Shown: one piece after another, positions 7,917 to 43,762 of the stretch | How the letters are laid out: each line of letters starts with the position of its first letter | Numbering within the stretch: the stretch's first letter is position 1 | DNA from: Phycisphaerae bacterium | GTDB lineage: Bacteria; Planctomycetota; Phycisphaerae; SM23-33 | Length of the DNA: 61,200 nucleotides | Assembly (NCBI GenBank): GCA_003551645.1 | Contig: PUND01000018.1 | Location: 1-61,200, forward strand | Direction: 5' to 3' | The notes under the pieces: model-generated | Database searches by the model: none | Told to the model about the DNA's origin: nothing | What the model saw: the letters and a program-made list of their open reading frames with translations, nothing else | Translations under genes and position numbers: made by a program

Positions 7917-7928
7917 TTTCGTCCTTCT

Positions 7929-8445
7929 ATTCGACACAGAGGCGCAGAGGTGCAGATAAGTTTATATGTGCTCGCTGGTTTCATATTCAGTTGATTACCC
8001 GCCTCACTCCTTCTCTTAGCGTGGGGCGATGGAAGTTCATCAGCAGCCCGACACGCTTGCCAGCGGCCTTGAGTGTGCTGCGAAGCTGCGCCTTGTGCAC
8101 GTCGGCCAACGCTTCGACTGTCTTCAGTTCAACTATAACGCTGTCGTCCACCATCAAATCGATACGGTGCTCGCCCACGACTTCGCCGCGATAGCCCACC
8201 CGGATTACGGCCTGCCGGTCAACCTTGTGCCCGCGCTGCTGAAGCTCATACGCCAGGGCGTTCTCGTATATCTTCTCGACGAATCCCGGGCCCCAAGCTC
8301 GCGATGCACCTCGACGCCGGCGGCGATGATCCGTTTGGTTAAGTCCTGTTGCGGATATTCACGCTCCGAATAAGTCACGTTGCAGGCCCCTATATAACCA
8401 GTTTCAGCTCTCTCACCTCTGTTCCTCTGCGCCTCTGTGTCGAAT
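7929..8445. mobile_element. Inverted-repeat-bounded GxxExxY cassette inserted between trpB and trpA
   Basis: Perfect 22-bp inverted repeat ATTCGACACAGAGGCGCAGAGG at 7929-7950 and 8424-8445, with further imperfect CAGAG units internally; splits the normally adjacent trpB-trpA pair. Confidence 0.65.
7987..8378 (-). pseudogene. GxxExxY protein (PD-(D/E)XK-like), frameshifted near 8291-8294
   Basis: GTG 8378 gives MTYSEREYPQQDLTKRIIAAGVEVHRELG; the protein continues in another frame as GPGFVEKIYENAL...RIDLMVDDSVIVELKTV...GLLMNF. Two extra bases in GAGCTTGGGGCCCGGGATTC break the frame. Confidence 0.85.
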
Positions 8446-9653
8446 CAGCCGCCCCTGCGTCTCCTTAGTATCTCCGCTATCTCGTTACAGTCCTTGTCAC
8501 CCCGGCCGGAGAGGTTCACCAGCACTATCTCATCGGCAGACATCTTCCCGGCCAGGTCCATCGCCTCGGCGACCGCGTGCGCGCTTTCCAGAGCGGGTAT
8601 TATCCCCTCAGCCCGCGAAAGCGCCGCCGTTGCGGCCAGCGCCTCGTCGTCGGTCCGGCAGGTGTAGCTGACGCGGCCGATCCGCTTCCAGTAGCTGTGC
8701 TCCGGGCCGACGCCGGGGTAGTCCAGCCCGGCCGATACGCTGTGGACAGGCGCTGTCTGGCCGTCCTCGCTCTGGAGGACGTAGCTCTTGGCACCGTGCA
8801 GGACGCCGGGCGAACCGGCGCAGAGCGTCGCGGCGTGTTCGCCGAGCCGCAGACCCGTGCCCGCGGCCTCCACGCCGACCATCCTGACCTGCTTGTCGTC
8901 GATCATCGGGTGGAAGATGCCCGCGGCGTTCGACCCGCCGCCGACGCAGGCGACGATCACCTCCGGCAGCCGCCCCTCGGCCGCGAGCATCTGTTCGCGC
9001 GCCTCGCGGCCGATGCAGCACTGAAACTCGCGGACCATCGTCGGGAACGGGTGAGGGCCGCAGACCGAGCCGAGTATGTAGTGGGTGTGCTCGCTGCTGG
9101 CCATCCAGTCGCGCATCGCCTCGTTGGTGGCGTCCTTGAGCGTCCGCTGGCCGGTCTCGACCGGCAAGACCCGCGCCCCCAGAAGCTCCATCCGGAAGAC
9201 GTTGAGCTGCTGGCGGCGGATGTCCTCGGTGCCCATGTACACGTCGCAGTCAAGCCCGAGCACCGTCGCGGCCGTCGCGGTCGCCACGCCATGCTGGCCG
9301 GCGCCGGTCTCGGCTATGACCCGCTTCTTGCCCATGCGGACCGCCAGCAGCGCTTGGCCGAGCGTGTTGTTTATCTTGTGCGCGCCGGTGTGGTTCATGT
9401 CCTCGCGCTTCAGATAAATCTTCGCCCCGCCGCACTTTTCGCTCAGCCGCCGGGCAAGGTAAAGCTCGCTGGGCCTGCCGGCTATTTCTCGGTGGCAGCG
9501 GTCCAGCTCCGCCAGGAACTTCTCGTCGGCCATCGCCTCGGCGAACGCGCGGTCAAGCTCCGCCAGCGCCGAGACAAGCGTCTCTGGCACGAACATGCCG
9601 CCGTATTCGCCGAAGTAGCCCTTCCGCGGGGTAGGTTGGGTTTTCCTGCTCAT
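8445..9653 (-). CDS. trpB: Tryptophan synthase beta chain
   Basis: [15 protein letters not shown] (PLP lysine), [25 protein letters not shown]. Confidence 0.97.
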
Positions 9654-11280: not shown

Positions 11281-11293
11281 CCCGGGGGTGGAG

Positions 11294-12082
11294 ATGTTCC
11301 TGGCCTACTACGACGAAAGCGGCGACGACGGTTACCCGGAATATTCGTCACCGTTGTTCGTACTGTCATCTGTGTATATGCCGTGCACTAAATGGAAGCA
11401 GACCTTCGAGCGGGTCGCGGATTTACGCCGAGAGTTGCGAGACATATTCGGCCTTCCGGTCAAACTCGAGTGGCACACGAAGGCCCTATTGCTCAACAAG
11501 AAACCGTACCGTGAGCTTGAACTTGAAGATTCAGAGCGACTAGCGATGGTGGATCGGTACTGTGGGACGGTCGGTGCGTTGGACGTACGTATCGTGAACG
11601 TTGTGATCCACAAGCCGGCCATTCGCAGCCGCGGGTACCGGGTACTCGACACGTGCTTCCAATACTCAATCCAGCGCATCGAAAACGACCTGCTTAGAAG
11701 CGACCCGGACGAGCTGTTTATGATCATCACGGATGAGGGACGGGAAGCGTCGATGCGCAAGACCGCACGGAGGGTTCAGCGAGTTAACTATATCCCCTCG
11801 CGCTTCGGCGAAGTCCCGTATCGAAAGGAAATCGAGCGGCTCATCGAGGACCCTTTGGCGAAGGATTCGAAACATTCCCATTTCATCCAGATAGCAGATA
11901 TGGTCGCGTTTGTGGTGTACCTCCACAAGCTCGCGGAGTTGGGCGCGGGAAGCTATCACAATCGTATGCCTGCGCAGGTTACGCCGGAGAGGGTCCAAAG
12001 CTGGCTAGATATGCTGAAGCCAAGCATAAACCTGGCGGCCTCCGGAAAGGATCGTTACGGTATCGTCTGTCACCCCGCATAA
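11294..12082 (+). CDS. DUF3800 domain protein (predicted RNase H-like fold)
   Basis: N-terminal YYDESG, central IITDEG, C-terminal DS..S.FIQIADM; codon usage visibly less GC-biased than neighbours. Confidence 0.85.
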   Translation: MFLAYYDESGDDGYPEYSSPLFVLSSVYMPCTKWKQTFERVADLRRELRDIFGLPVKLEWHTKALLLNKKPYRELELEDSERLAMVDRYCGTVGALDVRIVNVVIHKPAIRSRGYRVLDTCFQYSIQRIENDLLRSDPDELFMIITDEGREASMRKTARRVQRVNYIPSRFGEVPYRKEIERLIEDPLAKDSKHSHFIQIADMVAFVVYLHKLAELGAGSYHNRMPAQVTPERVQSWLDMLKPSINLAASGKDRYGIVCHPA

Positions 12083-31279: not shown

Positions 31280-32362
31280 TCACCGCTGATAAATGGGCAA
31301 CTGCCTCAGCGGAACACTCAGGGAGAGCACGGCCATGGCCGTGGCGTAATTGGCCCCTGCCCTCTGTTCGCCGCCCGTCGTGGTCGGCCAGGAGCCGTCA
31401 TCCCGCTGATTAGGCAACACCAGGTCGTACATGTGCTCAGCCCACTGGACCCAGTAGTCGCCGCCGAGCTGAAACATGCCCTGCGAACAGTGGTATATCG
31501 CGTAGTAGAACCACAGCCCGCCGAAGGTGTCCGGAAGGTTCTGGAGTATCCAGTCTCCCGCGGCGGCGCACGCCTCGTCGCCGCGTCGGCCGCCCATCTT
31601 CAGACACAACAGGCCGGTGCCCGTTCGCGCAAGGCCGGGGCTTCCCGGACTACCCGGCATGTAAAGGAATCCACCGCTGGGATGCCGACAGTTCAGGACG
31701 AACCTGACGGCCTGTTCGATCGACTCCGCCGGGACCGGCGCTCCGTTGATCCTGGCCGACCGAAGCGCCATCATCGCCCAGCCGCTGCAGGATATATCGC
31801 TGTCCGTGCTGTCGGTCTGATATCGCCAGCCGCCCTGGTGGTCCTCTCGTTTCCGGACCTGCTGTGCCGACAGCAGCAGCCCGATGGCCTTCGGGAGCAC
31901 CTCGTCTATGCGTTGCTGCCTTTGCCGGTCAATGACCATCCCGGATACTTCGGTCAGCATCAGGGTCGAGATGGAATGGCTGTACATCGGCCCGTGAGAG
32001 GTCGCCGTGCCGAGGAGCATGCCATTCTCCTGGGCGTTGTCGAGGATGAAGTCGATTCCTCTGTCTATGACATCACCGTACGGCCCGGTTCCCGGCGTGT
32101 AGCCGCTGGCCAGGAACGCCATCACGCCCAAAGACACGATGCCCGTGTTTCCCTCCAGATGCGGAGCCGCCCAGGAGCCGTCCTCTTTCTGCTGTTCGGC
32201 CAGATATTCAAGCCCGTGGTCGATGGCCTCCTCCACGCGGCTTTCGTAGCGGGCAAGCTCGCGATGGGGCTTGTCGCCACCATCGTCGGCGGCAACCGTC
32301 GCCGGCAAGACAGCGGCCACCACGGCCGCAACAGCAACTCGATATATCCTGTAACTATTCAT
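31280..32362 (-). CDS. Secreted prenyltransferase/squalene-oxidase-repeat (alpha/alpha barrel) protein, copy 2
   Basis: Signal peptide; QW-type repeats (QKEDGSW, QGGWRY, QRDDGSW); C-terminal LPIYQR; near-identical to 32497-33585. Confidence 0.85.
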   Translation of the reverse strand: MNSYRIYRVAVAAVVAAVLPATVAADDGGDKPHRELARYESRVEEAIDHGLEYLAEQQKEDGSWAAPHLEGNTGIVSLGVMAFLASGYTPGTGPYGDVIDRGIDFILDNAQENGMLLGTATSHGPMYSHSISTLMLTEVSGMVIDRQRQQRIDEVLPKAIGLLLSAQQVRKREDHQGGWRYQTDSTDSDISCSGWAMMALRSARINGAPVPAESIEQAVRFVLNCRHPSGGFLYMPGSPGSPGLARTGTGLLCLKMGGRRGDEACAAAGDWILQNLPDTFGGLWFYYAIYHCSQGMFQLGGDYWVQWAEHMYDLVLPNQRDDGSWPTTTGGEQRAGANYATAMAVLSLSVPLRQLPIYQR

Positions 32363-32450
32363 CTGCCAGCTCCGGTGTACGCTCGCTCCGATCGTCGCCG
32401 CTGACGCCTCGTAGGCATCTGCGAAAAGGTCCAAGTCGAACCATGGTTTA
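32355..32450 (-). pseudogene. Internally deleted remnant of the 3' end of the 33578-37243 gene
   Basis: Encodes KPWFDLDLFADAYEASAA (cf. EPWFDSDLMAEAYEAAAA at ~33980-34033), then in another frame RSERTPELADE* (cf. RSERTPEQEDE*). Confidence 0.8.
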
Positions 32451-32496
32451 TCGCCGGCTTACCTCCCGGATTGCTTAACGTTCACGCCCTCGAACT

Positions 32497-33585
32497 TCAT
32501 CGCTGATAAATGGGCAACTGTCTCAGCGGAACACTCAGGGAGAGCACGGCCATGGCCGTGGTGTAATTAGGCCCTGCCCACTGCTCGCCGCCCATCCCGG
32601 TCGGCCAGGAGCCGTCATCCCGCTGATTAGGCAACATCAGGTCGTACATGCGCTCAGCCCACTGGACCCAGTAGTCGCCGCCGAGCTGAAACATACCTTG
32701 CGAACAGTGGTATATGCCGTAGTAGAACCACAGCCCGCGGAAGGCGTCCGGAAGGTTCTGGAGTATCCAGTCTCCCGCGGCGGCGCAGGCCTCGTCGCCG
32801 TGTCGGCCGCCCATCTTCAGGCACAACAGCCCGGTGCCCGTTCGCGCAAGGCCGGGTCCTCCCGGACTACCCGGCATGTAAACGAATCCACCGCTGGGAT
32901 GCCGACAGTTCAGGACGAATCTGACGGCCTGTTCGATCGACTCCGCCGGGACCGGCGCTCCGTTGATCCTGGCCGACCGAAGCGCCATCATCGCCCAGCC
33001 GCTGACTGTTATATCGCTGTCAGTGCTGTTGGTCTGATATCGCCAGCCGCCCTGGTGGCCATCTGGTTTCTGGACCTGCTGAGCCGACAGCAGCAGCCCG
33101 ATGGCCTTCGGGAGCACCTCGTCTATGCGTTGCTGCCTTCGCCGGTCAATGACCATCCCGGATACTTCCGTCAGCATCAGAGTCGAGATGGAATGGCTGT
33201 ACATCGTCCTTTGAGAGGTCTCCGTGCCGATGAGCATGCCATTTTCCTCGGCGTTGTCGAGGATGAAGTCGATTCCTCTGTCTATGACATCACCGTACGG
33301 TCCTGTCCCCGGCGTATAGCCGCTGGCCAGAAACGCCATCACGCACAAAGACACGATGCCCGTGTTTCGCTGCATGTGCGTGTGCGGAGCCGGCCAGGAG
33401 CCGTCCTCATTCTGTTGCCCGGCCAGATACTCAAGCCCGCGGTCGATGGCCTCCTCCACGCGGCTTTCGTAGCGGGCAAGCTCGCGATGGGGCTTGTCGC
33501 CACCATCGTCGGCGGCAGCCGTCGCCGGCAAGACAGCGGCCACCACGGCCGCGACAAAAAACCGATATGTCCTGTGGCTATTCAT
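32497..33585 (-). CDS. Secreted prenyltransferase/squalene-oxidase-repeat (alpha/alpha barrel) protein, copy 1
   Basis: Same motifs as copy 2; start overlaps the stop of the upstream large gene. Confidence 0.85.
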   Translation of the reverse strand: MNSHRTYRFFVAAVVAAVLPATAAADDGGDKPHRELARYESRVEEAIDRGLEYLAGQQNEDGSWPAPHTHMQRNTGIVSLCVMAFLASGYTPGTGPYGDVIDRGIDFILDNAEENGMLIGTETSQRTMYSHSISTLMLTEVSGMVIDRRRQQRIDEVLPKAIGLLLSAQQVQKPDGHQGGWRYQTNSTDSDITVSGWAMMALRSARINGAPVPAESIEQAVRFVLNCRHPSGGFVYMPGSPGGPGLARTGTGLLCLKMGGRHGDEACAAAGDWILQNLPDAFRGLWFYYGIYHCSQGMFQLGGDYWVQWAERMYDLMLPNQRDDGSWPTGMGGEQWAGPNYTTAMAVLSLSVPLRQLPIYQR

Positions 33586-42902: not shown

Positions 42903-42944
42903 TAGCCACTAGCCATTAGCCACTAGCCACTAGCCATTAGCCAC
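42903..42944. repeat. Heptamer tandem repeat (TAGCCAY)x6
   Basis: tagccac tagccat tagccac tagccac tagccat tagccac, read directly. Confidence 0.95.
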
Positions 42945-43114
42945 CAGGCATTAACCAGTTTTCACTGGCCGCTTGTCATTAGGCAACCGGCTGTGTGTAA
43001 CTTTGGCTTTCGTAACGAAGACCACAGTCAGCAGCCGGCAACCACTGCGGGTCGGGCATCGGATCGGCCGGGTCCTTGCTACCTGTTCTTGTGGCGGCGC
43101 AAACCTGGCTGCAT

Positions 43115-43486
43115 TTACTGCGGGTTCTTCTGCACACTCCGTATCAGGCCGTTCAGCACCCGCGAACACTCGTCACAGGCGCTGTGCAAAGCGGCGGCTG
43201 GGACGGTCTGAATGTATTGGAAGTCGGCTGCCAGCCGGATAAAGGTCTGCATCTCGTACAAGCTGCCGCGGGCGTTGCGAAGGAATCGCACGTAATCGGC
43301 CGTCGTGCCGCGCCCCCAGCCTTCGGCGATATTCGCAGGAATGGAGGCCGCGGCGCGTCGAAGCTGCTGTGTCAAACCGAACTGCTCGTTGGCCGGGAAT
43401 CCGGCTGTGGCGTCGTAGATGCTTCGGCAAAGCTCCATGGCCTTTTGCCATGCGATCAGATCCGTGTAATCCGTAATAGATTCCAT
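43115..43486 (-). CDS. Four-helix-bundle protein (23S rRNA intervening-sequence protein family)
   Basis: DLIAWQKA, FP.NEQFGL..QLRRAA.SIPANIAEG, FLRNARGSLYE. Confidence 0.92.
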   Translation of the reverse strand: MESITDYTDLIAWQKAMELCRSIYDATAGFPANEQFGLTQQLRRAAASIPANIAEGWGRGTTADYVRFLRNARGSLYEMQTFIRLAADFQYIQTVPAAALHSACDECSRVLNGLIRSVQKNPQ

Positions 43487-43714
43487 GCCCCGTTTTCCTC
43501 CGGCGGCATAAATCGGCGGCCTTTCGGGCCAGCCGGCACGGCTTCGGCTCGTCCGGCCCCGGTGCCGAACGCCGAGACTGCGTCTGTTGGCAATGTACCG
43601 CGATTCTTGATTTCACGCCATAAGGTCTCGGCAACCACCTTTTTTGTGACGTTATTCGCCAATTCTGTTCCAGCCACCAATGGCTCCCGACTTGTGTAGG
43701 ACACATCGTGACTG

Positions 43715-43756
43715 TTGGCTCAGGCCTAATGGCTCGTGGCTTGTGGCTCATGGCTC
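43715..43756. repeat. Degenerate heptamer repeat (RTGGCTY), inverted relative to 42903-42944
   Basis: ttggctc aggccta atggctc gtggctt gtggctc atggctc. Confidence 0.85.
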
Positions 43757-43762
43757 TTCGCT

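Follow-up and report, generated by a model that had tools for sequence, protein, structure and literature searches.

The DNA between trpB and trpA in this Phycisphaerae bacterium is best explained, at a probability of roughly 55%, as a minimal promoterless selfish cassette that consists of one small gene with a PD-(D/E)XK nuclease fold between inverted arrays of three 8-mers, the arms probably being DNA ends recognised by the encoded protein. Across phyla, gene and arms form one unit that is found almost only in co-oriented gene pairs just behind the upstream stop codon, and one and the same junction can hold the full, the gene-less, the single-arm, the replaced or the absent state. The cassette was followed from the window, i.e. 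the whole stretch of 61,200 nucleotides analysed here, to its relatives in other genomes.

Layout of the trpB-trpA insert and its gene

The features of the locus are collected in Table 1. The two arms are 28 nt long each and 93% complementary. The sequence-only reading had described a 22-bp inverted repeat that reaches from the trpB UGA to the Shine-Dalgarno (SD) sequence of trpA, and this description is exact: on the mRNA (minus) strand the first arm opens at A 8445, the second ends at 7929, and AGAAGGA-CGAAA-AUG of trpA follows with no gap. The loop-out of about 470 nt that it proposed corresponds to 473 nt between the perfect arms. Of perfect 22-bp inverted repeats within 1.5 kb, the genome of 2.83 Mb contains only one besides this, a tight palindrome, so the repeat between trpB and trpA is not due to chance. 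In a 1.2-kb context, RNA folding predicts a pairing probability of 0.9-1.0 for all 22 pairs and a stem of -49 kcal/mol, with a folding z of -2.67 for the whole region. The G+C content of the insert is 56% as opposed to 67-68% in trpA and trpB. No promoter-like or terminator-like site, no Rfam match and no DDE transposase was found in the insert, whose only ORF is the one matching PF13366. A trp-specific regulatory RNA, such as an attenuator or a TRAP-like element, was rejected because the same arms flank unrelated operons and because of the missing Rfam match.

Table 1. Features of the trpB-trpA locus (positions in the window)
Feature	Positions	Strand	Remarks
trpB, tryptophan synthase beta, 402 aa	8445..9653	-	TIGR00263, 603 bits; stop UGA = 8447-8445
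Upstream arm, three tandem 8-mers ending CAGAG	8418..8445	-	outer 22 bp (8424-8445) perfect; first base = A of the trpB stop
SD-like AGGGG preceding the GxxExxY start	8387..8391	-	inferred from sequence
GxxExxY / PDDEXK_3 gene	7987..8378	-	GTG at 8378, stop at 7987, frameshifted at 8291-8294
G-run with reading-frame break	8291..8294	-	sequence
Downstream arm, reverse complement of the upstream arm	7929..7956	-	outer 22 bp = 7929-7950
trpA leader outside the stem	7917..7928	-	AGAAGGA (7928-7922) and 5-nt spacer; about half unpaired (predicted)
trpA, tryptophan synthase alpha, 274 aa	7092..7916	-	TIGR00262, 237 bits

A profile search places the gene of the insert in the GxxExxY family by score, with 113 bits for TIGR04256 (cut-off 35) and 114 bits for PF13366 (cut-off 22), but it differs from typical members in belonging to a QxxxT subclade and in being frameshifted. 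This frameshift, like the fact that the arms are part of a genome-wide 8-mer family, was absent from the sequence-only reading. The intact frame of about 130 aa is missing in this copy, since reading from the GTG ends after 57 aa and the nuclease domain lies in a different frame. A contig from run X1 (557 nt, depth 20.4) has identical letters at the G-run, which argues against an error of a single assembly, although this run possibly comes from the source sample itself. A contig from run X2 (depth 2.18, about 95% alike) has two letters fewer at the G-run, the congener G002 carries an intact orthologue of 129 aa, and both gene halves keep a low dN/dS against G002 (0.076/0.93 and 0.094/1.73), so that the break looks recent. 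A recent inactivating insertion is the preferred cause, and a programmed frameshift was rejected, as no slippery heptamer of the type X XXY YYZ was seen by eye in the upstream frame and close relatives are in frame. With its gene broken, this copy would be unable to drive its own mobility now, unless the frameshift is read through; taken alone, it is a recently broken member of modest importance. Another X1 contig, with a joint 7931-8469 (depth 4.81), may stem from a co-occurring relative with another allele and was excluded from the counts.

The structure of the protein was modelled, based on an alignment, for the intact orthologue of G002. The model (pLDDT 93.7) has a minimal PD-(D/E)XK, i.e. 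restriction-endonuclease-like, fold with D...ExK, and its best fold match is Cas4 SSO0001 (Z 8.1, rmsd 3.2, 98 aligned), with several other nucleases tied at 7.5-7.8 and lambda exonuclease also among the nearest folds. The GxxExxY protein is accordingly modelled as a nuclease-fold protein, a likeness that alone is no proof of activity. E34, D73, E83, K85 and Q97 are invariant across 22 diverse members and are the putative catalytic residues. The motif of the clade found between trpB and trpA reads E, D, ExK, QxxxT, in which QxxxT replaces QxxxY; the Y is missing in 26 of 96 loci. The protein is under purifying selection, with a dN/dS of about 0.08 between this genome (G000) and G002, low values in 11 further pairs, and dN far below dS in every pair tested. 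Our query detected the family on 8 of 72,556 plasmids, all of them non-mobilizable, and on 0 of 50,697 phages. PF13366 is described as a family of unknown function with multiple transfers (PMC3424549), and the available part of that source does not mention the flanking arms.

Two Rho-like genes were noted on contigs C60 and C51 of this genome, with 637 and 492 bits (cut-off 509). Elsewhere in the window, a DUF3800 gene (PF12686) lies directly behind a malic-enzyme-like ORF (11288-12082, plus strand), and two adjacent ORFs with near-identical N-termini (31280-33585, minus strand) represent a recent tandem duplication.

The cassette family and the states of one junction

TIGR04256 matches (185) were obtained in 65 of the 92 family genomes, with none in the other 27, many of which are incomplete; a genome carries 0-9 copies at unrelated junctions. 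The family set of 96 loci, composed of 86 of the best-scoring loci and 10 trp loci with four duplicates dropped, is not a random sample. Arms with a stem score of at least 14 were found at 93 of these 96 loci compared to 15 of 96 with swapped flanks, and at a score of at least 20 the numbers are 72 and 1. Where both neighbours were called, 83 of 92 loci lie in a co-oriented gene pair, as against about 28% expected from the intergenic lengths of this genome. The left arm starts within -6 to +10 of the upstream stop in 49 of 87 loci and within 3 nt in 22 of 87, and the right arm ends at a median of 14 nt before the next start; gene calls came from our own hexamer model, in which stops are reliable and starts are rough. 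As the sequence-only reading had expected, arm ends are tied to gene boundaries rather than placed at random, the median being 4 nt after the stop (6 nt with symmetric scoring) and still 4 nt when each of the 36 upstream gene families is represented by one locus. Its view of a sporadic unit that carries no transposase is likewise borne out by the patchy junction alleles and the lone PF13366 ORF. In other phyla and archaea, for which the best 80 of 599 loci were used, arms are present at 69 of 80 loci (16 of 80 with swapped flanks), 50 of 80 are co-oriented, and the left arm starts at a median of 9 nt after the stop.

The arm motif tracks the protein clade (Mantel rho 0.47, 0/999 permutations), a correlation that shared descent alone could yield. 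In a quick protein tree, in which 50 of 93 inner branches are open, the clades are largely found each at its own junction, such as nusB-ftsY, purL-purQ, hisH-hisF and others, the names being read from translations; one member of the trpB-trpA clade (L177) lies at another site. The loose arm-pattern match of L070 in the census is probably due to chance. At L058 and L161 (both hisH-hisF) and at L064, the stem joins the last codons and the stop of the upstream gene to the bases directly preceding the AUG of the next gene, an arrangement by which translation of the two genes would have to be coupled and which is lacking in L136 at the same hisH-hisF junction.

Each arm consists of three tandem 8-mers, and about 30 further arms are present in the genome (31 hits at no more than two mismatches). 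Most copies of this repeat family are gene-less pairs: 11 inverted pairs of 60-198 nt were identified in this genome, 10 of them between co-oriented genes. The congeners G001 and G002 contain 18 and 22 arms (control 1 and 0). The second GxxExxY gene of the genome (L043, contig C85, ~19.8-20.9 kb) is intact, of the QxxxY type, and lies between nusB-like and ftsY-like genes; its arm motif is a different one, and several additional copies of the arm are present. On contigs C88 and C107, gene-less arm pairs are clustered and interleaved with heptamer arrays of the type that accompanies four-helix-bundle genes. A second cassette of the same layout was observed in the window itself (42904-43762, minus strand), in which a four-helix-bundle gene (TIGR02436, 43115-43486) lies between inverted heptamer arrays, the left beginning at the upstream stop and the right ending 10 nt before the next ATG. 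In G001 and G002, a GxxExxY cassette lies between genes similar to the neighbours of this second cassette, the orthology of the junction resting on 39-57% identity. Among the four-helix-bundle genes of this bacterial family (L400-L402 and L404-L432), inverted heptamer arms flank 29 of 32, both neighbours are co-oriented in 26 of 32, and G·U and A·C mismatches in their arms number 39:37.

The trpB-trpA junction was compared in relatives by collecting 90 trpA loci, of which 65 include the 3' end of trpB and 25 have trpB elsewhere or end with the contig. The complete cassette of arm, GxxExxY gene and arm is present at 10 of the 65 junctions; an eleventh, in G020, is split across two contigs. Empty alleles, which the sequence-only reading had called for, do exist: 32 of 65 junctions are short, 23 of them with the genes overlapping or no more than 5 nt apart and 9 with 11-33 nt free of arms. 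The same arm type without the gene is found at five junctions (three pairs, one single arm, one doubtful), other arm motifs at 11 (four single arms of another GxxExxY type, three pairs or remnants of further types, four heptamer arrays), and other DNA at seven. In total, at least six different other arm motifs occur at trpB-trpA in other genomes, and single unpaired arms persist there in five. The tight junction is probably the ancestral state, since most genomes outside the family have it.

That the exact bridge from stop to ribosome-binding site is the selected feature is not supported by the comparison of orthologues. The stem includes or touches the trpB stop in only 4 of 10 (G000, G002, G054, G080) and begins 10-29 nt further on in the other six, the distance from stem end to trpA start varies between 1 and 40 nt, single arms persist, and the stems show no excess of G·U pairs; the exact fit seen in this window thus marks one extreme. 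On the rpoB tree the distribution of carriers is scattered, with 7 changes compared to a shuffle mean of 7.6, and on the trp tree it shows slight clustering (8 changes, mean 10.4, 25/1000); both are FastTree trees that are poorly resolved at depth. Their cassette proteins form one clade with 54-78% identity, compared to 57-74% for trpA, as expected from long vertical residence. In genus g16, the loci L004, L092, L093, L096 and L116 have only the left arm of another GxxExxY type, between trpB and trpA or before trpA, and in L006, L097 and L153 arm-like 8-mers lie within the final trpB codons, so that the repeat extends into coding sequence. The rpoB matches of L200/L206, L201/L205, L248/L258 and L237 (G020, G051, G032, G085) either fall into separate parts within a single long open frame or are longer than expected, pointing to inteins or large insertions.

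Arm symmetry, mobility and the competing explanations

Selection on an mRNA helix predicts more G·U than A·C mismatches on the transcribed strand, while symmetry at the DNA level predicts a ratio of 1:1, and the scoring used treats both mismatch types alike. The arms gave G·U:A·C ratios of 128:126 in 93 family loci, 91:114 in 69 loci of other phyla and archaea, and 8:10 in 13 trpB-trpA junctions, as opposed to 34:7 in 73 control hairpins behind stops (Fisher p 8e-5). The ratio is also about 1 in the cleanest stems, in the outer 12 pairs (33:36) and in the abutting subset (69:61), and a subsample with one locus per family gave 52:43. The test is weaker for long stems, in which a single mismatch costs little, the control hairpins are shorter, and related loci do not count as independent. 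The arms nevertheless covary: at the 13 trpB-trpA junctions, three of their linker columns show 3-4 different Watson-Crick pairs, with two-sided changes that include transversions. The lack of a G·U bias argues against selection on the mRNA stem, and arms that mirror each other without wobble are in keeping with copying from arm to arm or with recognition of the DNA itself.

A target-site duplication had not been evident from the sequence of this locus, and the comparison with congeners, which are only about 75% identical, showed none either: of 18 sites compared, nine gave two-flank alignments (five shared, four differing), with a duplication in none. Among the four differing sites, one resembles a deletion in which the outer six bases were retained and three are ambiguous. 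Recent transposition was not observed, as neither near-identical copies at different sites nor a clean pair of filled and empty sites were found.

For the selfish cassette we propose that the arms would be the DNA ends of the element and that the protein may bind the tandem 8-mers and nick or cut there, by analogy with the action of SsnA on NTS or of RAYT on REP. From time to time, repair or recombination in the host might then place a copy of the cassette or of a gene-less arm pair at a new junction, and copying from one arm to the other could maintain the mirror-image arms. Insertions would survive only where transcription of the operon passes through and the upstream stop and the downstream start signal are spared; with -4 to about 30 spare bases per junction, such a survival filter would place the ends at stop and ribosome-binding site without further cause. 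Formation of the mRNA stem is very likely and might help the host to tolerate the insert, but the stem would be a by-product and not the selected device. Against this reading stand the clades that track junctions, the vertical-like identities, the rarity on plasmids and the absence from the phages searched, the lack of any transposition caught in the act, and the 26 of 96 loci without the Y.

The model of the sequence-only reading, in which the cassette is an intervening sequence of the mRNA, is possible but doubtful. Its arms would pair and loop out the cassette so that stop meets start and coupling is kept, or RNase III would cut the stem as in rRNA intervening sequences, or the terminating ribosome would melt the base of the stem and free the start. 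It gains from the residual spacer (stop to arm plus arm to start), which measures -20 to 40 nt in 50 of 79 loci compared to 3.9% under length-weighted random insertion, and from G080 and G054, in which the stem is lengthened by at least 10 unrelated pairs that cover the trpB stop and, in G054, the trpA SD as well. Several downstream genes start 0-5 nt past the arm, which leaves no space for an SD, and an SD was detected in front of 28 of the 84 downstream genes as against 49% of 1,980 genes of this genome, the start calls being rough and made differently. The host has RNase III (rnc) and Rho, and cassettes with four-helix-bundle genes, which are kin of rRNA intervening-sequence genes, have the same layout. 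Two weak signals lean towards RNA pairing at the stem edges, namely 45 G·U versus 26 A·C in the 3 nt just beyond the stem end (p 0.03) and a more stable sense duplex at 59 versus 30 family loci (p 0.007). However, the sense strand has no advantage in other phyla (35 versus 34), the stems themselves lack the G·U bias, exact abutting is limited to four of ten orthologues, single arms persist, trpA retains its own SD here, and the 11 gene-less pairs of this genome lie 4-1299 nt from gene ends.

A free-standing homing endonuclease, of which each clade would cut the empty allele of one operon junction and be copied in by repair, in a cycle of invasion, decay and loss, appears unlikely. The tracking of junctions by clades, the presence of every stage of such a cycle at trpB-trpA with its 32 empty alleles, and the purifying selection would all fit, a PD-(D/E)XK homing endonuclease is known in I-Ssp6803I (PMC3424549, as far as its text was available), and protein distances follow those of trpA+trpB (rho 0.66, 1/999, n=10). 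In the seven genomes that also have rpoB, however, this correlation is not significant (rho 0.53, 84/1008; rho 0.03 for rpoB), the sequences of the empty junctions vary too much to share a single target, no two distant hosts have unusually similar GxxExxY proteins, and neither the clade member at another site nor the gene-less pairs at 11 other sites are explained. It is quite improbable that protein and repeats are a domesticated module that serves the host, e.g. by restricting incoming single-stranded DNA as SsnA does, with its position being incidental. Strong purifying selection, the vertical-looking divergence and the scarcity on plasmids and phages, which is described likewise for RAYTs in the accessible part of 10.1101/2021.07.10.451892, are in line with it, but 0-9 copies at unrelated junctions, 27 of 92 genomes without a match and the frequent decay, including that of this copy, are not. 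The four readings overlap and are not fully exclusive.

Relation to known systems and significance

The Ssn/NTS system, in which the gene of the GIY-YIG nuclease SsnA is flanked by its own hairpin repeats (PMC11893778, as partly accessible), resembles the cassette in its small single-domain nuclease gene, cognate repeats on both sides, gene-less copies elsewhere and covariation of repeat and protein. The cassette differs in its PD-(D/E)XK fold with a putative activity, in arms made of tandem 8-mers that pair across the gene instead of forming local hairpins, in tens rather than hundreds of repeats, and in its strong tie to operon junctions. With REPIN-RAYT, judging from the available portion of 10.1101/2021.07.10.451892, it shares gene-less extragenic inverted pairs (about 60-200 nt) whose spacer varies, and an enzyme gene that has stayed at one site for a long time and seldom occurs on plasmids; it has, however, no HUH/Y1 tyrosine transposase, its arms are tandem direct 8-mers and not palindromic REPs, several gene copies occur per genome, and archaea carry it too. 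The ORF-bearing intervening sequences of 23S rRNA (S23p / four-helix bundle; PMC4990558, in the part available) are similar as sporadic inserts of about 450 nt with a 28-bp terminal stem and a small ORF, and four-helix-bundle cassettes of the same layout exist at mRNA junctions, one of them in the window. Unlike them, the cassette lies between protein genes and not in rRNA, has a nuclease-fold gene and no G·U bias, and its stem is an RNA prediction only. Tentatively, GxxExxY and four-helix-bundle cassettes might together be regarded as a widespread class of "operon-junction intervening sequences", mobile genes that would hide themselves from translation and whose arms would zip the insert out of the mRNA, so that stop and start are reunited, or let the terminating ribosome unzip the downstream start, while the nuclease-fold protein would move the unit by the same arms without a transposase.

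Insertion sequences and MITEs with terminal inverted repeats differ from the cassette, which has no DDE transposase; a target-site duplication was not seen in the comparison with congeners of only about 75% identity. With homing endonucleases it shares a small nuclease gene between conserved genes and a patchy, decaying occurrence, but it has inverted repeat arms and gene-less derivatives and no intron. Phage genes of the mobE/SegB type are examples of free-standing homing endonucleases.

The pair trpB-trpA is a textbook case of translational coupling. Its junction provides a natural allelic series of empty, full, gene-less and single-arm states and of other arms, by which DNA and RNA models can be separated. 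This series, the measured distances and the wobble test are what is new from this locus; our literature search, with subscription papers and supplements outside its scope, found no description of a GxxExxY cassette. Common in bacteria as well as in archaea, GxxExxY genes still lack an assigned function, and the clade-specific arms offer a direct substrate to test. If the GxxExxY protein cuts its arms, RAYT/REP and Ssn/NTS would be joined by a third, independent pairing of an enzyme with its repeats, and a protein of 125 aa would offer a natural panel of specificities.
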